Below are positions 10,121 through 43,654 of a stretch of DNA of 64,000 bases, piece after piece. The notes beneath the pieces are model-generated. The model saw only the letters and a program-made list of their open reading frames with translations, had not been told where the DNA came from and did no database searches. This DNA comes from Felis catus (lineage: Eukaryota). The DNA is taken from positions 8,060,001 through 8,124,000 of the forward strand of contig NC_058383.1 of assembly GCF_018350175.1 (NCBI RefSeq). The letters run 5' to 3'. Positions within the stretch are counted from its first letter, which is position 1. Each line of letters opens with the position of its first letter. A program made the position numbers and the translations under genes.

Positions 10121-11842
10121 CGGCAGGGCGTGGTGGTAGTGGCGGCGGCGCGAGGCAGCGGGTGGCTGCAGTGTCCGCGGCCGGATGTAGTTGGGAAAAG
10201 GGTGGTAGGGCCCCGGGGGAAACAACTCGTCCTCCTCGCGATCCCAAGGCGGGAGCACCTCGTTCCAGTCGGGCAGCTCCTCTCGGGCGGGGGCGGGGGC
10301 GGGAGGCGGGGGCTGCGGGGAACGGACGTGGGTGGGGGCGGGGGCGGCCCGGGGGTGCGGCACGGGCTCGGGAGGGGCGTTCTTCTTCCGCTTCCGCTTC
10401 TCCTCCACCTCTTCGATGATGCTGACCACGTCGTCTGCTGGCAGATGGAGTTTGGTGGACAGCTCAATAAGGCTGTCGATCGTCTGAGGGTCCATCTCTT
10501 CGTCGTCGTCCTCCTCCTCCCCGCCCTCCTCTGCCCCCTCAGCCTCCTTCCGACGGTGGCCGGGCATCTCCTCCTGGGAGCGCTTGTCCTCGGCTCCGGC
10601 TTCTCCGTCCTCCTCCTCNNNNNNNNNNNNNNNNNNNNNNNNNNNNNNNNNNNNNNNNNNNNNNNNNNNNNNNNNNNNNNNNNNNNNNNNNNNNNNNNNN
10701 NNNNNNNNNNNNNNNNNNNNNNNNNNNNNNNNNNNNNNNNNNNNNNNNNNNNNNNNNNCGCTCTCTCGCTCCTCCTCCTTCTCCTGCAGCCCCCGACCCC
10801 CAAGGCCGCGCTGCCGGGCCCCGCCCTGCAGCAAATATTGGAGCAGCAGGTCCGAGGCGAGGTCTGCCAGCCGCTCTTCCTGCGCCGCGGCCTGCCGTGT
10901 GGCCTCTGCCTGTCGCCGCCCGGCTTCTACCTGCGCCAGCCCTTGCTGTAGAAGGCGCTCCCCAGCCTCAGAGCCGCCCAGGAGTGAGCTCTCCGGACGG
11001 CGCGCCTTGGGGAAAGGGGCGCCCAGGCTTTGGTACGCCTTGGATAGGGGTGCCAATGCCTCACCTAGATGTGTTTTGGGGGAGGATACCCCTTCCCCGA
11101 ACTGGTGGGCTTCAGGAAGGGACCCGCTCTCGGGCATACGCGCCTGGAATTGCGGGGGAGCGGGGGGTGGCAGGGGCGCGCGCTCCGGAACGCGCGCCTG
11201 GAACTCTCCCCAGGAAGCGCGCCACACGCGCTCCGGCCCGGGGCTCTCCAGGTTGACTCGGGTCAGAGTGTGCGTGCGAGTTTCCGTTTCTGCTGCCGCT
11301 GTCTCTTGCTGGCGCTTGGCGCTGCTCGGACTGAAATCTCGCAGTTCCTGGAGCAGAGAAGCTAGCGCCTCGAGCTCCTCGGAGGGGTCTCCAGCCTCGG
11401 GACCATTCTCCTGAGTCTGAGGGCGAGGCGGGGCCGCAGGTGCCTGGGTCTCCGGCGCCGGCAGGCTGTGGGTCTGGCTGCGCACGGTCTCGGTCAGCAG
11501 AGCTTCTGCTGCTTCTTCCTTTGGCCCCTGCTGGGAGCCGCCGGGAGCCGGGGGCGAGGCCGGGCGGTCAAGTGCCTGAAGCAGCACCGCGGCCAGCGCC
11601 CGGGGATCCACGCCCTGGAAAAGCTCTCCCTCGTCCTGCGGCTCAGAATTTCGAGCGGCTCGGACCTCTGGGGCGCTAACATCGTTCGGCCCGGGTGCTG
11701 CGTCCCCAGCTACCGGCTCTTTATGTTCAGAGCTGAGGGGAGGTGGCTGCGCCTCAGGGTGCCCCGGGGGCGCTGCTCCCAACCCCTTGATCAGTAGAAG
11801 GAAGCAGACGAGGGTGGAAGCCTGCAACCTGAGCGATTTCAT
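9986..11842 (-). CDS. VGF: Neurosecretory protein VGF (granin-like prohormone); single coding exon; stop inferred inside N-gap
   Basis: ATG at 11842 (MKSLRLQASTLVCFLLLIKGLGA signal peptide); NERP-1 (RPESSLLGG...QVEA-GRR), NERP-2 (QAEATRQ...QRGLG-GR), KRKRKK-NAPP and RPR-TLQP peptides; exon 2 starts at 11862. End near 9986 is estimated from the ~44 further residues in human VGF and lies in gap 9973-10120. Confidence 0.95.
10619..10758. other. Assembly gap (140 N) in VGF Glu-rich region
   Basis: N run; reading frame is preserved across it. Confidence 1.
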
Positions 11843-12369
11843 GACCAAAGGACTGCCGGAGACTGTGAAAAATAGAAGGGACCAAAGAAAGAGAGGGTTT
11901 CTGTAAGAATTTTCCGCTCTCTGATTCTATATCCCCTTCCCCCACCTTTAATCAGGAAAGCCAGGGCTTCCCTCATCCCCCTAACCTTACCCAGAGGAGG
12001 GACGTTTAGAAGCAAAGGAGGAAGATGTTGTGCCGATCTCTGGAGTCGTGTAAATGGGAAAACGCCCGCAACCCTCGCTCCCCCAATGCCTCTTCGCCCC
12101 CTTGCCTAAGCCATCTCACTGCCAGCGCCCACGTACTAAGCAGCTAAGATAAGGTGGAAAAAAATCTCTGCTCCCTCCCCACAGGACTCCCCGGATGGTG
12201 CGTGGGCGACTTCAGCAGCAAGAGAAAAGCGGCGACTCCCCCACTTATCAGGGACCCTTACCGGGGTCTCCCCGCTGTGTTTTTAACACCCCCATCCGGG
12301 AGGAGAGAGAAACCCTCCCTCACGCCCACGGCTGCTGAGGGTTTGAGGGATGGACAGCGGAGTATTTAC

Positions 12370-19213: not shown

Positions 19214-21690
19214 CTAGATGTCGGCCTCCAGCGGGTACTGTTCTGTGTAACCCTTGACCAGCTCGAGCCCCAAGCCGGCCTGGCAGAGGTCAGCCAGCTG
19301 CGACCATAACTGGGACGCCAGGAAAAGCTGGCGCATGGCGTTGAGACCGGCGAGGCGCGGGGCCTGGCCCTAGAGGTGCCGCAGAAGCCGGCTCTGCGCC
19401 TGCGCACCAGCGCTGCGCACGGCGTCGACGTTGAGGTAGCGCCACGTGCCGTCACCGCCGTGCAGGATGGGGAAGGGGAGCGTGCACAGCGTGGGTAAAC
19501 GCGGGCGCGCGGAGCTGTCTACGTGCCACTCCAGGCCCTTGGCCACCAGCAGGCGCAGGTTGCTCTCACGTGGCCGGTAGGGCTGCCAGTCCTGGGTGAA
19601 CGTCGCGCTGCACGGAAGGCAACAGTAGGAGGCGGGCCACGTTGCCGCCAGTCTCCGACACGGTCTCGGTGGGCAGCGGCGAGGTGACGGAGGCCCGCAG
19701 CGCCGTCAGCTGCACACGCCCAGCCGCGCCAGTAGCACGGAGGCATTGACTCAGACCCAAAGGATGCTCCTGTTGGGGGCAAGAGTGAGCGCGGAGTGGG
19801 CAGCGGAAGGGCTGGAGAGCCCAGCGCCTCAGCATCTTCACACCCACGGGCTCCCAGCAGGGCCCCTCGGAAGGACCGACTGTGCCGGGCCAAGTGGAGT
19901 GGGGTATGTGAAAGCCTGCCCCACCCCCGAGGGTAGCATGGAGGACCCAGGGGCAAGTCCTCAGGATAGGTTCCTGGAGCCCCAAGGAGGGGCGGGGTTA
20001 GTGTGCGGGAGCCAGGGGACTGGGGGTGTGGGCCCCTGGGTCTCGGAGGGGAGTGGAAGGGAGGAAAACAGATCAGTCGGTAGGATAGGGGAGCCGGACG
20101 GAAAGGACAAAGATTCACATTAGGATGTTTGGATCCCTGGAGGGAGGCCGGATCAACAGAGAGGAGTCCCGGTCACGGAACTCCGGACGCTTAGGCTCCT
20201 CAGCCATCTGGAGTAAGGACTGAGGGTTTGACGGCTGGGAGTCGGGAACTTTTTGACTTCCCCTGGGCAAAAGGGCCTGGGTAAGGACTGGGAGTCCGGG
20301 GGCGGGGCTCACGGGCGCCCCCACTCGGTAGAGCCAGCAGAGAAGGAAAGCCGGTGACTGGGCTCGCGGGGAGGACGCCCGGCTACCCGAGCTCCCTTGT
20401 CCTTCTCACCTGCTTGGTGATTAGGCCGTGTTTCTTGAGCTCCCGGGGGCCCACTTGGTCGTCCCGGGTGAGCCGTGCCACCTTGACCCCCGGGTTCTGT
20501 GTCTTGACCAGCTGCGGGCAGAAGCGCCGCAGCAGCCCGGCCACGCCCTTGCCGCGCTCCCGGGGAGCCACGCACAGCCCGTCCACCAGCGCTGTCTCCC
20601 CGGAGTCGATCACGTGCGCCGACTCCAGCGCGATCGGCGGACCCAGGCCGTTAGGGGGCCCTCCGCCCCTGCCGGGACTCTCGGCTCGCAGGGCTCGCCT
20701 CTTCCCACAAGCTGAGCACTCCGTCGTCACCACCCCGGGCGCCAGGCCAGGCCCGGGCCTGCCCCAGATCTCCTCAGCACTTGGGTCTCGAATTCCAGAG
20801 CCGGCAGAGAGGGAGCTCATGCGCCGGGCTCTCGTCCACCTCTCGAGATGCTCCAGCTCCGCGTGCACCCCGTGCCTGAGCACTGGCCACGCCCCCTTCC
20901 CTTGGATCCACCCCAGGAGCTGGCTATGCCCTCCCGCCCCGGGCCTTGCCACGCCCTGCTTCTTCTTAGCTCCGCCCCGGACCCCGTCTAGGGGCTGGTC
21001 CTGCTAACCGCGTCCAGGTGCTTTTTCGTACGCGAGTTCGGTCTATCTGGGGTCCTGACCCCACTCTTGCTCTCACCCCCGGTCTACCCTCTCTTGCCTG
21101 CTCTCTTCTTTTTGTGCTCCTGCTCCCAGGAACTCCAAATGAATGCTCAAACACCCAAGCTATCACCAGCCCCTCCCTCGGGTTCCTCTGCTACCCGTGT
21201 TGTCTCCATCCCACCCTCATTGGCTGGGGCCCTGGATCCGCACATCCTACTCTTTGGTTCCAAGGCCGACTGGCTCCTCAGCATCCGGACGGGGGCTGGG
21301 GGAGAGGCTCGCCTCCTCTCTTTCTTAAGGTCCACTCACCCAAACGTAGCTTCACCCCCTTTTCACCTGGGCCCCGGCTCTCCTCACTCCTGTTTCGCTT
21401 GGCCAGCACACGGTGCCGTCCTGTTCTGTTGCCACCACGAAGTCCAATGGCTGGGCCGTGGCCTCAGGCCCCGATCCAGACCTGGGGTTGGCCCCCAAGG
21501 ACTTGGCCTTGGCCTCAGGCCCTGATTCAGCCCCCAGGGGCTCAGTCTCAGCCTCAAGCCCCCATCCGGATCTGAACTTGGCCTCCGCCTCCTGTAGTGG
21601 GGTGTTTGAGTGTGGCTCGACATCTGGCTGGGCCTCTTTTTCAGGCTTAGGGAGCTCTGAGCTGGCTGAATCACAACTGGATTGTTTCAT
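19214..21690 (-). pseudogene. NAT16: NAT16 (histidine N-acetyltransferase, GNAT) unitary pseudogene
   Basis: Exon remnants 21690-~21388 (MKQSSC...PLDFVVATEQ), 20634-20410 (IALESAHVIDSGETALVDGLCVAPRERGKGVAG...LITKQ) and 19769-19214 (...GYTEQYPLEADI*). Lesions: ~30-codon deletion plus frameshift near 21410-21420; acceptor AG>CG at 20635-20636; in-frame TGA 19751-19753; TAG 19370-19372; further indels near 19713 and 19595. Confidence 0.9.
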
Positions 21691-21815: not shown

Positions 21816-24800
21816 CCCACAGTACTTTGCTACACAAATACCCCTTCTCTTTCTCTCTCCACATTAACCCTGGGAATTCAGGGCCTCCAACTCTGACCAA
21901 ATCCCAATCCTACCCTGCCCCACCCTACCAGGGTGCTCCTCAACAGTGACAAACTCAGGAATGCCATGAGCTCCTCACGGACTGGCCCCAAATCTCCTTC
22001 AACCCCAGTCACCCCCAGGGACTCAGGCAAGGGGCAGAAGGTCCTTGGAGGGGTTAAAAAAAAAATGGAAAGGCATCCCTCTAGGGTCCCACCATCTCTC
22101 TCAGGCCTCTGCAAGAACATGGGAAAGCCCCATCATCCCCACTCCTCCTACAAGAGGGTTCCCTGAGAAAAGCAGAGGGTTCAACCTCCTCCCTTTCCTA
22201 CCGCTGCCACTCTCAATCCCCAGGGCAAAGGGAGGAGGATGTAGACGCCAGATCTTCCCCCTATGTCCACTCCAGTGCCCTCCACTCCCCTCCAACACAT
22301 ACATTCAAGCATAAGCCAGAGGAGTGGACAGGTGGACAGCTCCATTAAAAAATTTCAAGTCATTTCTCCCAGGCTAATCAAACCTGCCTTTCCCTTCCTT
22401 CTGCTGGAGTTTGTCCTCTCCTTCTCCATAGGAAGACCTGGTTCCACTCTAGGGCTAGATGACTATTTGGAAAAGGGCTCTGTTGGAACTCCTGCCAACA
22501 AGATGTGCACAGGGATCACCGATGCCCCCTCCCCCCATTTACCTTCCCTACAGAGAGTCTCTGTGTTCTCTCTCTCCCTCTGTTCTGCTTTTAGTTTCTC
22601 CCTATAATTCTTGCTCTGTCTCTTGCTCAATACTTTCTGTGCCCTTCCCCTTCTCGTTTTTGGGTCAACTCCTATGGATCTAGTACCCTTTGGCCTCCAG
22701 CTCTTCTGTCTTCCCTGCCAGAGACAGGGCCAAAGAGAAAGGCCCCTCCCCAAGTCCTGAAGACTCCTCATTTCCAGACCTCTCTCCTTCAAACCAACCA
22801 AATCAACTAATCGTTATTAATTTTTATTTGACTGGGGGAGGGGCAAAGGGAGGGAGAGAGAAAGAGAAACAGAATTCAGGCTCCATGCTCAGCACTGAGC
22901 CCAACGCAGGGCTTGATCCCAGGACCCTGGGATCCTGACCTGAGCCAAAATCAAGTGTTGGAAGTTCAACCGACTGAGTCACACAAGTGCCCACCCAAAT
23001 CCTCCAATTAAATCCTCCTCTTTCAGCCAATTATAACTGTCCCTTCATATAACCTACATTAAGCCTCATTAACCAACATCCCAGGGGACACACATACCAG
23101 CTACTTTGTGAGAGATAATATGGTGTTGGTTGGCTATTTATTTATTGTTATAATAAATATAACCTAGGCTTGACCTAGGCTTGGGATAGGGGACAAACAA
23201 TGACACCAAGGAGTTTAGGGATGATCTTAGCCTCCATGCCATAAACATAGTTTACATGAACACAGCGTGCCTGCTGTACAGACAAACCTTTAAAACAAGA
23301 GCTCCATCTCCCTCTTTCTTTTCAGTCTGATGCTGATGTCTAAGGCTCTCCCAGGTAAGCCTGGATGAAGTAAGACAGCATCAGGCCAATGTCATCAGAG
23401 GTGGGGGCAGCACAGGCTCAGAGGATCCTAGAGCCCCTGCTAGAGTTGGGGACCATCAGGTTCAACCCACTTCTTTCACAATGAGGAAACAGACCCCCAA
23501 GGAGGCTAAGGTCTTGCCTAAAGTGACTCAGCTTGGGCAGAGCCAGGCTAACAGTTACGCTTTCCTAGCCCCCAGGCTAGTGGTGGGGAGACCTCTTTTT
23601 GGTGTATATTTGGATCTCCAAACCCAGCCTGAAGAGCAAGGAATTACTGGGTCCTTGGCAGGAGTCAAAGGTCCCAAGGGTTAAGGGCTAAGAACCAGAG
23701 ATGGGACCATGGGAGGAATCCCCACTACCCTCTGCCCATGTCAGCAGTTCCTATGCCAACAACAAGCCGGGGACCAGCTCAAGCATCAGATTCCTTGTGA
23801 CAGGCAGGAATGACGAGGCTCAGAAGAGATAAAAGCAAGTTAGCTTGTGGCTCCCATCTATGTCTCCAGGCAACCTCACCAGCTGTTCCTGAGTCCCTGG
23901 AAAATAACAAGCTGGTAGTTCTGTGCTGACTCCAGCGATTCCCCACTGCCCCAAAAAGGGACAGAAAGTGAGCAACTTGTAGACTGGGACACATCCAACG
24001 AATAATTCGAGACACGAGGTTTTGGTTACCCCTCTTGTGCTTTCAAGATGGGGGAGAGTATTTCCAAAGGGTGTGTCTATGCCTTGGATAAAGTGGTTTG
24101 TAAGGGGGTCGCAGGGAAGAAGGAAGCGCCTGCAAATTCATCTCTTCATTTTTCCCCCAGTCACTCTTCTACACCTGCTCCCTTTGGTGGGGAGGCGGGG
24201 GACAAAACAGTTCCAAATTCCTTAAGCCCTGGGGGAGGTGGGGACTGGGAAAAAAGCAGGTCGGGGGTTCCAGGCTAAGCCAAAGCTGCTGGCTGGCCCC
24301 ACAACCCTGGCTCCACACTCTGATCCCTTCCCATCCCTCAGAATAGCGCCCTCCAACCGGGCTCCTTGAACTATCGCTCCCATAGGTGTCTAGGCAGAGG
24401 AAGGGGCAGCCCTTTGCGTCCAGGGCACTGTGGGAGATGTAGTTCCGGCATCTCCTGGACCAAGCTCCAGGAAGAGGGGCGGCACATCCCCTCCATATCC
24501 TCCGCATCCTTGGACCTATTCTTTCAATCTTATAAATATAAATGATCGCTCTGGGAGGGGATGATTCTAGTCCTCGCTGGGCATGCTGGGAGCCCCCCTA
24601 CCCCACCTCCACCGCACCCCACACACCTGAAATATTGATGCCCTTGAGGTCGACAGCTTCTCGGAGCTGGAAGAGGGAGCAGAGGGAGCAGAGAGCGGAG
24701 AGGCGGGGACAAAGAGACGGCAGTTACACAAAGCGCCCAAAGAACAGAGCGGGAAGGACAGGAAGGGAGGCAGGAAGGAGACAAAGGCGGACAGGGGGAT

Positions 24801-25199: not shown

Positions 25200-26600
25200 G
25201 CCCCGTTCCAAGAGTGGGGGTGGGGGCGGCAGGCGCGCGAGATTCCGAAGGAAGCGGTCTACTTGACAGGGATCCCTCTGGGCACCAGGCTCTGGGGACA
25301 GGTGGGAGAGCAATGGCGACGGGGTGGGGGAGGGATGACGGACAGCAAAGTGTCTCTGAACACCTAGGCGAAGTCCAGGTCCCAGTTATCTAGGTCACCG
25401 GACAGGGAGAGGTTGGGCTGTAGGGGGCGCAGCGGCTGACTTCCCCGGGCGGGGGTGGGGGGTGGGGGGTGGGGGACGGTGGCCTTCTGCTGCCCCCATT
25501 CCGCGGTGGAGGAGCACGCCAGCCCCGAGGCCCGCGGCCCCCTACCTCGCCGGAGCCGGAACCGGGGCGGGGAAGCCCAGACACGGAGCGGGGCCGGCCA
25601 CGCGGACAGCGAACGGTGCCGGTAGAGGGGTCTCTTCGGAGCCCCGAGGGTCGAGCTCGGGTGACGCGCGGGGACCGGAGCAGTCCCAACTCGGAGTGAG
25701 AATGTAGGGTCTGCGCTGCGGCTCAGTTCGGCACGCGGGCGCGAGCGGGGACATTCGGGGTTCGGGCGCTACGGGCACCTCCCGCGGCGACGCTCCGCCG
25801 GGCCGGGCGGCGGCTCCGAGGGGCGGAGACCCCAGCGACGTGGAGGAAACCCGGCCCGGATCTGGAGTGGACTCGGGGCGGCCTTGGGGAGGTGCGGGCG
25901 GAGAGCAGGTGCCCTGGCGGGGCGGGGGAGGGGGGGGGGGCGTGTGGACCTAGGTGGCGGGCGCAGCAGGATAGCCTCAAGTCTGGCGGACGAGACTCCG
26001 CCCCTTGTCCTGGCTAGGGAGCCGGACCTTAGGTGGAAGTGCCTTGGGGTTTGGGGGGGGGGAAGGGGGTACTGCTGGCTTAGTTATTGCCCCCACGTCC
26101 CTAGCACCTCTATGCTCTGTCCCGAAGCACCCCCCTCCCCCAATCTCGCAGTCCTCCCTCCGACCTCCCGCCGCCAGATAAGTCAGAGCGACTGGAAAGG
26201 GCACGCAGAGCCCTGGGGACCAGGTCAGAGAAACTGATCAAAGATACTGGAAAGTCGTGAAGATGGGGATGTGAGGGGACACCAGGAGACAGAAGCAGAG
26301 AGGCGGAAGGGAGCAGAGCGAGGCCAAGACCGGTCAGAGTGTCCACCCCTCCCCGGGGGGGGGGGGGCGCAGGGTAGCCTCGTCCCGCAGGTGCATCAGA
26401 GGCCTCAGCTCACGCTCAGCGGCTGGCCGGCAGGCAACCAGGCCCCCACAGGGCAGCACGCAGAAAGAAAAACTCCAGGTACACCCACGAACCCACTCCC
26501 TCACCCCCAGCACACGAACACAGACCTCTGCGCGCGCGCACACACGTCCTGGGGATCTCCGCACACGCTCTGCACCTCGTGCTAAACCGGGTGTGTGGGG
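25200..26600. promoter_or_regulatory. CpG island, probable NAT16 promoter/non-coding exon 1
   Basis: Very CpG-rich with GC boxes; minus-strand donor GAG|GTAGG near 25545, facing the NAT16 acceptor at 21695-21696. Confidence 0.5.
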
Positions 26601-26913: not shown

Positions 26914-27134
26914 CTTTTTTTTTTTAATTTTTTAAATGTTTATTTATTTATTTTGAGAGACAGAGACAGAGCATGAGCAGGGGAGGAGCAGAGAGAGAGA
27001 CACAGAATCCGAAACAGGCTCCAGGCTCCGAGCTGTCAGCACAGAGCCCGATGCGGGGCTCGAACTCACAAACCGTGAGATCATGACCTGAGCCGAAGCC
27101 GGGCGCTCAGCCGACTGAGCCACCCAGGCGCCCC
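26914..27134 (-). mobile_element. CAN-SINE (SINEC) with TSD CTCATTCCACTTTTT
   Basis: tRNA-derived head GGGGCGCCTGGGTGGCTCAGTCGG, (CT)n, AATAAA and A-tail on the minus strand; flanking duplication visible. Confidence 0.95.
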
Positions 27135-37982: not shown

Positions 37983-39534
37983 CTAGACAAAGGTGAGGTG
38001 AGTTGAGGCAGGGACGCCACAGGTTTCCTTGTGCTCCTCAAACAGTGTCTCCAGAGCCTGCATGTAGAGCGTGTGGTAGTGGCTGACCTCCTCCTCGGTG
38101 GGGCAGAGGATCCGGGGCACCGGAATGGGGCGGCCCACTGCAGGGAGAGGGCAGACGGGGTGAGGTGCGGGATTGCCCGTACAGCTGACGGCCGCTCTCC
38201 TCCCCCCCCCCCCCCCCCCGAGACGGGCGCTCACCCACGGTGGTGATGGGCCTGGCAAAGGGCAGCAGGCCCCAGGAGTTGGCCGAGAAGAGTCCGCGAC
38301 CCCAGAAGATGCAAGGCGAGTAGCTCGTGAGCTTCTTGAAGGCAACCTGGCACAGGTATTGCCAGGAGCCGGGGGCAAAAGCCTTCAGATGGAAGATATC
38401 ATTCTCTCCAAAGGAGTACGCGGGCACCAGGGAGGCGCTGAGCAGGGACAGCAAGAGAGAGGAGGCGTGTTCGGGCCAGCGGCTCTCGGGGAGCCCCCAG
38501 ACGGGGCTGCAAATCCCTCCCACGCCTGGCTCCCCTTCCCGAGGCCTTTTCGAGCAAATGACCAAGAAAGATCTGGAAGAAAGGACTCACAATTCTTGAG
38601 AAATGATTGCGTACCGGGCCTTCCTCCCCAGCTGAGCCTCGAACCACATGGCGCTTAGGGGGCCCTGACCCCCCACCCTGGTACAGACAAAACTCCTCAT
38701 ACAGCTGCCCCAAAACTCAAGTCCGAACGGCATGACCGGTGACACGAACAGTCGATTAACACACACTTGTACCTGTTCTTTCTACTGGATTTTTACCATA
38801 AAGTGAGCTAGAGGAAAGAAAGTGCTATTAAGGGGCGCCCGGGGGGCTCAGCCGGTTGAGCGTCCAACTTTGGCTCAGGTCATGATCTCACTGTTTGTGA
38901 GTTCAAGCCCCGCACTGGGTTCTCAGCTGTCAGCACGGAGCCTGCTTCGGATCTTCTGTCCCCCTCCATGGCTGCACCTCCCCTGCTCTCGCTCTCTCAA
39001 AATAAATAAATAAACTTAAAAAAATGTTTTAAAAATACCCATGCAGAGGGGACCCGTGCAGCTCAAACCTGTGTTGTTCAAGAGTCGACTGTACACATTT
39101 TCTTATCTAATCTTTGCAACCACAATATCGTTGTAAAATTAGGGATTAGTCCTATTTCGCAAGTAAAGAAACATGTCCGAGGTCTCGCCTTTGAGGTAGA
39201 GTCAGAAAGGGATTTGAACCCGGGGCTTCTGAGCACAAGGTCCTGCTACTCGAGCTATGATCCTGCCTCTTTCAGAGAGGGAAGACTGGCCGAAAGTGGA
39301 TATGGTGTTGAAACAGAGAAAACCCTCAAGTGTTGACATGAGAGGGGGTGCCGGCCGGGGCGGATGGTGGGGGGGTGCTCAGTCTGTTGAGCCCCCGACT
39401 TCAGCTCAGGTCACAATCTGGAGGCTTGTGAGTTCAAACCCCGCGTCGGGCTCTATGCAGACAGCTCAGAGCCTGGAGCCTGCTTCGGATTCTGTGTCTC
39501 TGTCTCTCTCTGCCCCTTCCTCACTCACACTGTC

Positions 39535-39586
<52 letters not shown>

Positions 39587-41295
39587 TCTCTCAAAAATAA
39601 ATAAACATTAAAAAAAAAAGTGCTGACATGAGAAGCCAATACGCAGGGCACAGTGTGGGCTCTGGGGACACAGAGGCCCAGCTACAGGGACCTGGATATG
39701 TAGGGACAGAGAGCGTGGGCCCCCAGATGCAATGCAAAATTCACCAGCACCCCCGGGCTGGGCACTTGCGCCCCACTCACCCGTGTCTCAGTGCCAGGCG
39801 CACGAAGCCTTTGCGATTCCGCAGAACGAGGTGGTGCGTCCCTGGGATTGCATACAGGGCCTCCTGGGCGCCCCCAATTATGATGACCACAGCCTGCCCT
39901 GGCTGGGGCTGAGAGAGAATAAAGTCCAGGCTCCTCTGATTCACAGAACAAATTCCTGCATGCATGTCGAGGTGGGGAGCAATCACCACGGGCTCCCGGG
40001 CTGCCTGGCCCCTCGCTCACCCTTTTGGCGCGTGAGCCCCACACCCCCATTCCTTCGAAGTCTGCTGTCCCGTGCCCGTGTCAGTGTGACCTATAGTGCC
40101 TCTCCCCGCAAGGAGGCAGGACACTTGCCCCAAAGCTACTCCTTGCCACCTACTGTGAGCCCGGCCAACATTACCGCTGGGTGCCAGGCCTGGCTTCATC
40201 TTCCACTTCCCAATCAGCTGGCCGGGTGGGAGGCAGTCTGCCTCGGGTGGGGGAGGGGCGCCTCACCGTAGGACGAGACATAGTCTCGGTAGATCGGGAA
40301 GTAGAAGATGAAGCTCAGTCCCACCGACGTGAGCCGAATCCCGGGGAAGTGCTTGGAGAAGCCGTTCATCTCCGTGTTGAAATTAGTGAAAATTCCCACG
40401 CTCATGATCCCGTGTGGGTGACCACCGATCACATAGTTCCGGTCCGGGGGCAGCTCTGCTGTTTTCACCAGCTTGGGGGCGTCGGGCAGGAGGAGGAGGA
40501 AGAGGCGTGGACGGCAAGAGAGCAGATGAAAAGAGTCTCCCTCCACCCCAAGCAGGCTTCAGAGTTCAAGGTCCTCCCTGGGCCAACAGCAGGGGCGGGG
40601 GCTACTCTGGAACACCATTCGGCCCCCCTTCCGCATGCCCCATTGTCTGAGTTTAGAAAGCCCAGGGGTGCATAGGCAGGGGTGAGCGGGTGTGGGGGGT
40701 GAGGGTGGGGGGAGAGGGAGGAGGCAGAGAGTCTCTGTGGATGGTGACCTCTCACCTTGACCGGAAAATAATCCCTTAGCTCTTTCCACATACTCCAGGT
40801 TTTCATGAAAGCAAAGCGCCTTCCACCTTGGGGCAGAGAGGTGGGTGGAAGAACGCCTGGGGCGCTCAGCCACCTTTCTTCCTCCCCCAGTGCAAGTCCC
40901 GCCGCGCTCACCTCGGTTGGGAGTGTCCCAGTCCAGGAAGAACCACACCAAGTAGAGCACAGAGAAAGACCAGAGTGGAGTGAAGAGGAGGAAGAGGAGG
41001 AGAAGGGAGAAGAAAGGACCTGGGTGAAAGATGAGAAAGAAAAGTCACTTCGCTTTTGAAGCTGGGCCATCGCACCCAGCGCCTGCTCTCCTCCCCGCTC
41101 CGATCGCCCTGGTGCAGCCAGCCACCTCTGGCTCTCTCCTGCTCCCTTTGCAAGGGGGGCTCTAGCTTTCCTGCCCCCCCTCCCTGCTCTCCTTGGGGAC
41201 CGCAGGCCAGCAGGCCTCTCACCCATGAAGAGGAAAGACAGCACGAATTGGTAGGCGCTTATTGCTTCCCGCCACTGCTTCCGCACGGTTTTCAT
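37983..41295 (-). CDS. MOGAT3: 2-acylglycerol O-acyltransferase 3 (329 aa)
   Basis: Exons 41295-41223, 41019-40912, 40826-40756, 40471-40267, 39955-39781, 38437-38235, 38137-37983; all GT-AG; 990 nt; DGAT2-family motifs YFP, HPHG, GGAQEAL, RKGFVRLAL and FGEND intact; ends ...GVPASTHLTFV*. Confidence 0.95.
38750..39093. mobile_element. Tigger2-like DNA transposon fragment with a SINE (38831-39024) in MOGAT3 intron 5
   Basis: TIR-like GTGTTGTTCAAGAGTCGACTG followed by TA near 39071-39093. Confidence 0.55.
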
Positions 41296-41852: not shown

Positions 41853-43654
41853 TGGGGAAGGCGAGGGGCGGGTGGGCGGGGAAGGCGCAGCGCGCCTTGT
41901 GCTCCTGGAACAGCTGCGTGAGCCTCTCCACCTAGAGCGCGGGCAGCGCGTCCACCTGCGCCCCGCTGGGCCGCGAGCAACGGACGGCAGGATTGGGGGG
42001 TGGGGCGGTGGGGGGGGGCACTGCGGGCAGAACGGGAGGTGAGAGGGGCGGTCGCTGGCTCCCTCATCCCGTCCCCTTCCCGCCCACCCGCCCGACGGTG
42101 AGGGACGGAGTTCAGGCCCGGAGCAGTCGCCTAAGGCCAGCCTGTGGGGGAGGGGGGTGGGTGGAGCCGGCGCGGCAGAGGTGCGGCCCGCAGCCGGGGA
42201 CCTTCACCTCCCGGAGCTGGGAGCGCGCGGGGCCCGAGCTCCGGGGGGGAGCCGGTGCGCGGGCGGGGGGAGGAGTGGGCCGAGGCCGGGGCTCCCCGCC
42301 GGTGCCGGGGGGCGTGCGAAAGGGCGGGAGGAGACGCAGGCACCCGTGGAACAGCCTCAGGGCGACCCTCAGCAGCGGCCTCGGCGCCTCCTGCGCTCTC
42401 AGCGCCAAGAGCCCGGAGGGCTCGGGAACTGCTGGAAGAGCTGGTTCTCCCCGAGAGAGAAGACAGGCCCCAGGAGAGCGAGGGGGCATGCCTGACTCTG
42501 AGTCCCTCACCCTCCCACCCCCCACCCCCATCCCTGACCGGGGCCGGCCCTCTGCACTCCTCCCGGACAGGGCAGCCCGCGGGTGTCCCGCCCGGCCACT
42601 GGCCGCTTCCTCAGTGCCAACTTGACAAACCCCTTCTGATTCCGGATCCGCAAGGTTAGCGCACTCGCTTTGGGGTCCAGCGCTTCCAGGGGCCCTCCCG
42701 CGGCCAGGACTGCCACCTGGCCGACCTCAGGCCGGGACAGCAGATAGGCGGCGCTGGCCTTGTCAGAGGACAGCAAACCTGGGGTGAGGGCAGAGGCAGG
42801 GGGCCTGATGCCTGGGTCCTTGAGAAAAGGGGTAGGAGGACACCAGGCAGGTAGAGCTGGGACCCAGAGGCCCCCCCCCCCACGCCCCAGGGCAGGAGGT
42901 TGAAGTAGGAGTCGCCAGCTAGGACTGGGGGGTGCTGAGGCTGACCTGCCCCCTCCTCACCACTACACATGGTGTAGTCCCGGAAGCTAGGGAGGTGGAA
43001 CCAACCTGACAGCCTGAGCAGGTGCGGCCAGAGGCCTGGAAAGAGGCCCAAGAAGCCCGTGGTCTCTGTGCAGAAGTTGCTGGCTTCTGCAGGGAACATA
43101 CCCCCATCCTGGCAGTGAGATCAGACTTTCAGGGGTGACCAGAGAAGAGTCGGTTCCAAAGCCTTGCCCCCACGCGGCACACTGTTCCTGGGTGCCCCTC
43201 ACCAAGACAGGAAAGCCATCTTGGAAATGTCTCCAGATGGCCCAGTTGCCCACCCAGGCAGAGCAGTGGCCTCCTGCGTGTGGCCAGTCCCTGTCTCCAG
43301 AGAGCCAGACCAGGTAGAGGAGGGCTAAGATCCAGGCTCTGCCTAGGATCGCGGGGATGAGTGCGGCCGGGCACACCTGGGCTGTAGAATGGAGCGGCAG
43401 GGGGTGATACTCAGGACCCCCTCTTGCCTGTTGCATGGTTTCAGGCCCTTCTGTCCCGGCTCATTCCTTCTATGCCTTCAAGGGCCCCCAGAGATCCCGG
43501 CCCTGCCTCCCTCCTGGAAAGGGGAAAGTGGGTGCCAGATGCTGGGACTCACTCACCGAGCCCCAAAAGAAGATCCGCTGAAGGACGGCCACCGCTTGGA
43601 GACCCTGCAGGAGGCCGGCACGCTGTGGAGGGGTGATCCCACAGGGGCTGCCAT
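41853..43654 (-). pseudogene. DGAT2L7P: DGAT2/MOGAT-family pseudogene (MOGAT1/2-like; positional orthologue of human DGAT2L7P)
   Basis: Six exon remnants: 43654-43557, 43381-43203, ~43105-42961 (NFCTETTGFLGLFPGLWPHLL..FRDY), 42778-42604 (GGPLEAL..RNQKGFVKLAL), ~42475-42297 (SLGENQLF..LFHG), 42020-~41853 (LFQEHK). HPHG absent; frameshifts; TGA 42399-42401; TAG 41932-41934; altered donors; ATTAAA at 41806-41811. Confidence 0.85.

Follow-up and report, generated by a model that had tools for sequence, protein, structure and literature searches.

The NAT16 locus of the domestic cat is an old unitary pseudogene and a documented case of the loss suspected in non-primate mammals

Introduction

Two unitary pseudogenes of the cat, TAS1R2 and UGT1A6, derive from single-copy metabolic or sensory genes and carry indels that are fixed across felids. 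The NAT16 locus described here is likewise single-copy with fixed indels. Unlike in those two cases, the loss extends to herbivores, bats and whales, and an explanation by carnivory therefore does not fit.

The closest described system is the human histidine N-acetyltransferase HisAT/NAT16, which makes N-acetylhistidine (EC 2.3.1.33; PDB 9EMD, 9EMO; PMC12219266). In its structure, histidine is stacked between Tyr74 and Trp246, its carboxyl group is held by Tyr74, Tyr79 and Gly123, and helix 1 contains Phe63 (PMC12219266). The cat locus has the orthologous sequence with the same order of three coding exons and, like its human counterpart, adjoins a gene of the DAGAT family. It keeps the codons for Gly123, Leu124, Thr160, Arg161, Asp163 and Trp246, but lacks Phe63, Tyr74 and Tyr79 and has no full reading frame.

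The available text of PMC12219266 proposes that NAT16 may be a pseudogene in most non-primate mammals, and calls for independent confirmation. Supplementary Table 7 of that paper classes as low-quality or truncated 39 of 40 entries for Carnivora, 41 of 41 for Cetartiodactyla, 6 of 6 for Perissodactyla and 20 of 23 for Chiroptera; the accessible part of the source-data file holds no species-level data behind the table. The cat locus is a case of that proposal. Where the available text counts RefSeq flags by order, without lesions, dates or a cat-level statement, the lesions are resolved here. Literature searches, with subscription journals and TOGA tables outside their reach, retrieved no cat- or lesion-level account of NAT16 loss. 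To judge from the same text, the loss was largely anticipated in print by PMC12219266, and what is new is its confirmation at the level of lesions, together with protein-level evidence that horse, muntjac, bats and whales do not have these lesions in common with the cat.

Results and discussion

Identity and copy number of the locus

The NAT16/HisAT orthologue occupies positions 21690-19214 on the minus strand of the window (the whole 64,000-nucleotide stretch of DNA that was analysed), with a sequence match across both GNAT domains. The middle exon matches the human NAT16 crystal constructs (PDB 9emo/9emd; E 4e-33), and the last exon matches both NAT16 in the PDB (E 3e-28) and the Pfam family Hisat_C (PF24066; E 1.9e-11). 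With three coding exons and the introns kept, it is the ancestral locus that carries several inactivating lesions. Searching the cat's own genome with the Chlorocebus protein P0008 gave four matches, all at the NAT16 locus (29 top candidates scored), and a family search with Hisat_C gave one match, again at this locus (7 top candidates scored). An intact NAT16 paralogue elsewhere in the genome, which the preliminary description had named as a possible refutation, was not present among the top candidates scored in either search. The earlier assignment of the DNA to a felid is borne out by a Feld-I_B match in this genome that is identical to Fel d 1 chain 2 (PDB) at 58 of 58 residues.

Lesions in the coding exons

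Lesions were located by frameshift-aware alignment of the primate NAT16 proteins P0008 (Chlorocebus) and P0007 (Microcebus) to the minus strand. When the alignment was repeated with the armadillo protein P0009, the same lesions were found in the last exon (exon C), and the gap in the first exon (exon A) was placed differently. The remnant of exon A (21388-21690, minus strand, ATG at 21690) corresponds to the disordered N-terminus and the start of GNAT domain 1. It has a 30-codon (~90-nt) deletion with its junction at 21421/21420, which takes out Phe63, Tyr74 and Tyr79 (human numbering; helix 1 and the histidine-binding loop, PMC12219266), followed by a 1-nt deletion and frameshift at 21410-21411. 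The preliminary description had reported the absence of a ~30-residue block and a 1-nt frameshift after it, both in agreement with the alignment. It had missed the remodelled end and donor of exon A (21365-21391, minus strand), where protein read-throughs indicate that the ancestral GT has probably gone; substitute GTs are present at 21387 and 21366, the latter being the donor used by the gene model of P0330 (see below). Elsewhere in the window, nothing credibly matches the deleted block (best E 0.013).

The middle coding exon (exon B; 20410-20634, minus strand) is open, without indel or stop, and 62 of its 75 residues are identical to the reference. It keeps Gly123, Leu124, the ERGKG acetyl-CoA motif, Thr160, Arg161 and Asp163. 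Hence two features of an active HisAT, the acetyl-CoA motif and the β-bulge (Gly123, Leu124), are retained, and the substrate-binding Phe63, Tyr74 and Tyr79 are gone, all within the 30-codon deletion. The splice acceptor of exon B reads CCG where NAG is expected (20637-20635, minus strand), as previously noted, and may be a recent change, because the P0330 model splices at the same position. In the baleen whale models P0020, P0028, P0156 and P0157 this acceptor is read through as GPLIAL; other models give GPQIAL and the cat GPPIAL, which suggests separate hits at this site in baleen whales and the cat.

The remnant of exon C (19214-19769, minus strand; second GNAT domain, Hisat_C), recognized by its matches to PF24066 and to NAT16 in the PDB, ends with the native stop at 19216-19214. 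One nucleotide is inserted directly after the acceptor (19768-19769; context CAG/GAGCATC, with the alignment starting at 19768), a frameshift that had also escaped the earlier reading. The Arg185 codon is a TGA in the ancestral frame (19751-19753), which would be out of frame in a spliced transcript because of the inserted nucleotide. Further along the minus strand lie a +2 nt frameshift (19713-19717), a 3-nt deletion (19682-19683) and a 17-nt frameshifting deletion (19598-19599) four codons ahead of Trp246; the first and last of these are common to P0330, P0199 and P0337, and the 3-nt deletion has the same reading in P0330 and P0199. The Trp246 codon is present but would be out of frame, since it lies beyond the 17-nt deletion. 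For a transcript spliced at the 19769 acceptor the first stop would be a TGA at 19566-19568 (minus strand), 67 codons into the exon, and no open frame runs through the second GNAT domain including Trp246. A TAG occupies the Gln318 codon (19370-19372, minus strand). This codon reads Gln in seven of the eight cluster members (see below) that span it, including four of five near-identical fragments, and the TAG is therefore not old but recent or polymorphic. The last-exon TGA (19753), TAG (19372) and two or more additional indels of the preliminary description were thus all recovered.

A further TGA, at 19708-19706 (minus strand), falls in the frame that P0330 and P0199 keep open as far as the native stop; among these sequences it is private to the window's lineage. 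Two pairs of compensating frameshifts might have been taken to indicate selection, but this reading was discarded: the indels of exon C do not cancel out, leaving a net shift, and the substrate loop is missing in any case.

Presence of the lesions in other assemblies

Fourteen contig sets from eight studies contain 0.99-1.00 of 282 sampled 31-mers; 11 of them were flagged as possible sources of the window and three, from three studies, were not. About 28 of the 282 words (~10%) span a lesion point, and the 14 sets therefore cannot miss most of the lesions, although each could miss one. The fraction present in RNA-labelled contig sets was 0.24-0.91, which was not counted as evidence of expression. 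The 30-codon deletion occurs in all eight members of two clusters of near-identical open reading frames from other assemblies, one of which is identical to the window and possibly its source; the intact frame that would have spoken for a functional gene was thus absent from these frames. The -1 frameshift is found in seven of the eight and is absent from P0172. Compared with window positions 21765-21145, P0172 has the deletion without the -1, an almost identical 5' part and a diverging intron, and may represent a secondary change, a mosaic contig or an error. From P0172 it might have seemed that the deletion came before the -1 frameshift; this idea was dropped, as the Prionailurus protein P0330 and the more distant P0171 both have it. 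The fixed lesions are the indels, the TAG being either not fixed or recent.

Comparison with Prionailurus, age and decay

Relatives were compared as protein sequences. A search of 50%-identity representatives led to P0199, the cluster of which includes P0330, a model from Prionailurus iriomotensis. P0330 is a stitched model of 378 aa, named 'probable N-acetyltransferase 16' and devoid of the substrate loop; it has the same 30-codon deletion and the same -1, +2, -3 and -17 readings as the window, and Gln at the TAG site. Over 21690-21367 all 108 codons are identical between the two. Across 202 codons P0330 and the window have 30 derived residues in common versus 9 private to either side; Asn111His and Thr204Ala, artefacts of a primate-heavy consensus, were rejected as shared derived residues and removed from the counts. 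P0199 and P0337, which are deeper than P0330, also have the last-exon indels. The age ratio of 5.6-6.7 translates into 39-61 My (limits 24-125 My) if, as we assume, Felis and Prionailurus split 6-8 My ago, and the last-exon block alone gives 30-46 My. The loss is thus not species-specific, with a rough age of 40-60 My and wide limits.

The coding sequence has also drifted from that of working genes. Fifty of 257 aligned window codons (two of them consensus artefacts) differ from the consensus of nine intact placental proteins, which themselves differ from it at 2-22 codons, whale models doing so at 21-32. The excess over the most divergent intact protein, that of the armadillo, is significant (p = 5e-4), and the minimal dN of the window is ~0.10. 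Changes in the window are not depleted at deeply conserved sites (17 of 105, versus 33 of 152 elsewhere; p = 0.34), whereas in the intact set they are (11 of 105 versus 44 of 152; p = 3e-4); contrasted directly, the window and the intact proteins do not differ significantly in conserved-site changes (p = 0.13).

Between the window and P0330, exons A and B differ at 1 of 183 codons and exon C at 10 of 177 (p = 0.005). This unevenness counts against uniform neutral decay, which does not predict it, and may reflect haplotype sharing, a difference in mutation rate or a new constraint. Low CpG content accounts for part of the slowness of exon A, but not for that of exon B. The dead exons keep the character of a CpG island (19214-21387), with a CpG observed/expected ratio of 0.88-0.89 in exons B and C and a GC3 of 88%.

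Comparison with other mammals

Identity and length filters left 54 of the 150 proteins examined, and 53 of these fragments have at most three derived residues in common with the cat. Models from three bats, a muntjac and two sirenians retain all or part of the block deleted in the cat, as does an equid-linked fragment. In P0162 the block is present behind a frameshift of its own, with 43 of 45 residues compatible, and in P0291 it is interrupted by a deletion other than that of the cat. The horse models are truncated forms without Trp246. At the level of these protein sequences, horse, muntjac, bats and whales do not appear to share the cat lesions, which points to separate decay in each order, possibly after a brief shared relaxation on a stem branch. 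A placement of P0162 as a carnivoran sister to cats was not supported, and a metagenome scan with P0162 for orthologous DNA gave 335 pattern hits, none of which was confirmed.

Interpretation of the cat locus

The cat NAT16 locus is a real and old unitary pseudogene, and a new documented case of the suspected non-primate loss. With a probability of about 0.9, it would make no active enzyme and has likely been dead for tens of millions of years, from before today's cat genera split. Enzyme inactivity is what we infer from the sequence, because of the 30-codon deletion, four frameshifts, damaged splice sites and stops. Viewed on the human structure (PMC12219266), the deletion would take away helix 1 together with the histidine-holding loop of Tyr74 and Tyr79, and the spliced transcript would stop 67 codons into the last exon, ahead of Trp246 and of the strand that completes the first GNAT sheet. 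Selection was probably lost on the branch of the feliforms or on the felid stem. Fixation of the large indels would have preceded the separation of Felis and Prionailurus, with the TAG, and probably also the CCG of the acceptor, arising afterwards, and other laurasiatherians appear to have decayed separately. The preliminary description of a multiply inactivated unitary pseudogene 'in this felid' stands as to the single locus and its many lesions, but its framing was too narrow, most lesions being common to Prionailurus.

An assembly error, or a loss private to an individual or species, would explain why the TAG is missing from most near-identical fragments, but is so improbable as to be negligible given the word sharing across 14 contig sets from eight studies and the same deletion in eight of eight frames, and it is already contradicted for the indels by their presence in Prionailurus. 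Sequencing error, against which the preliminary description had argued, is very unlikely on all three lines. A dead enzyme gene whose 5' part is newly constrained, whether for a shortened protein encoded by exons A and B, for a non-coding RNA or for regulation by a CpG island close to VGF, would fit the single difference in 183 codons from Prionailurus, an exon B free of indels and stops with its acetyl-CoA motif, the high CpG ratio and GC3, and the fact that a 378-aa model can be stitched in Prionailurus. The exon B acceptor, however, is CCG in this genome, exon B has 11 shared derived residues, several at conserved sites, and P0171 differs at 3 of 86 exon A residues; slow change is expected of the CpG-poor exon A, and the pattern would look no different if cat lineages had shared haplotypes. 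We regard such a constraint as improbable, and simple decay of the cat gene as the better reading.

Whether the decay began once or repeatedly is a separate matter. A single loss, regulatory or coding, on the stem of the laurasiatherians or of the carnivorans, with every visible lesion arising later, would be in keeping with the low quality of nearly all laurasiatherian RefSeq models (PMC12219266), and few shared marks are to be expected from a stem branch that was short. Such a single loss is nonetheless rather unlikely, considering that 53 of 54 fragments have so few derived residues in common with the cat, that the cat-deleted block survives wholly or partly in bat and muntjac models, the equid-linked fragment, P0162 and P0291, that one carnivoran and three bat models are not classed as low-quality in Supplementary Table 7 of PMC12219266, and that the age estimate centres on 40-60 My. 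The lineage-specific loss put forward earlier was not borne out, since 39 of 40 carnivorans and 41 of 41 cetartiodactyls look broken in RefSeq according to that table.

N-acetylhistidine in cats

One of three cat metabolomics supplements lists N-acetylhistidine in serum (PMC10899575), where it stands at 0.78-fold, and histidine at 0.85-fold, in cats with late kidney disease; it is absent from the accessible supplements of PMC8483406 and PMC11164369. The metabolite was detected in beagle plasma but not in dolphin plasma (PMC6089887), is annotated in cow plasma (PMC12846448) and, according to the available text of PMC12219266, also persists despite enzyme loss in rats and guinea pigs. Since it is still found in cat serum, loss of the enzyme does not abolish it. 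The suggestion of a metabolic gene loss stands for the broken enzyme gene and does not extend to the metabolite (PMC10899575). Another source of N-acetylhistidine in cats is likely; the compound in serum would derive from diet, gut microbes or another acetyltransferase.

We tentatively propose that NAT16 was lost many times independently in laurasiatherians (cats, horses, deer, bats and whales) and that a second histidine-acetylating route keeps N-acetylhistidine in cats, a combination that is possible, if somewhat doubtful. If true, cats would be a natural knockout for finding that route, and would allow a test of the connection with kidney disease that the human Phe63Ser variant has suggested for acetylhistidine. 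The lesions lend support to the conjecture in print that most non-primate mammals have a dead NAT16, and the stitched Prionailurus model illustrates how such a loss can escape notice in automated annotation. As with mice and rats, human HisAT biology is not modelled by cats. The loss is no adaptation peculiar to cats, and no phenotype has been connected with it.

Genomic surroundings

A Pfam scan of the neighbourhood covered 120 long stop-free frames outside the NAT16 locus, out of 425 of at least 70 aa, and identified the domains Clat_adaptor_s (AP-complex small chain), DAGAT, GT_PLOD, 2OG-Fe(II) and zf-HIT. The order of the AP-complex, DAGAT, PLOD and zf-HIT domains is as expected and would fit the position of NAT16 between MOGAT3 and VGF that is stated in PMC12219266. 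A MOGAT3-like gene at 37986-41044 adjoins a second, partial DAGAT-family copy (42510-43460, minus strand), which has Pfam hits in three frames and looks like a degenerate duplicate. A further CpG island at ~25500-26000 may be the old promoter. The open reading frame at 10760-11926, which gave no Pfam hit, is putatively VGF. Finally, tRNA-like elements at 22815-22995 and at the ARAGORN hits at 27044, 29063, 30988, 37583 and 44315 are presumably carnivore SINEs.
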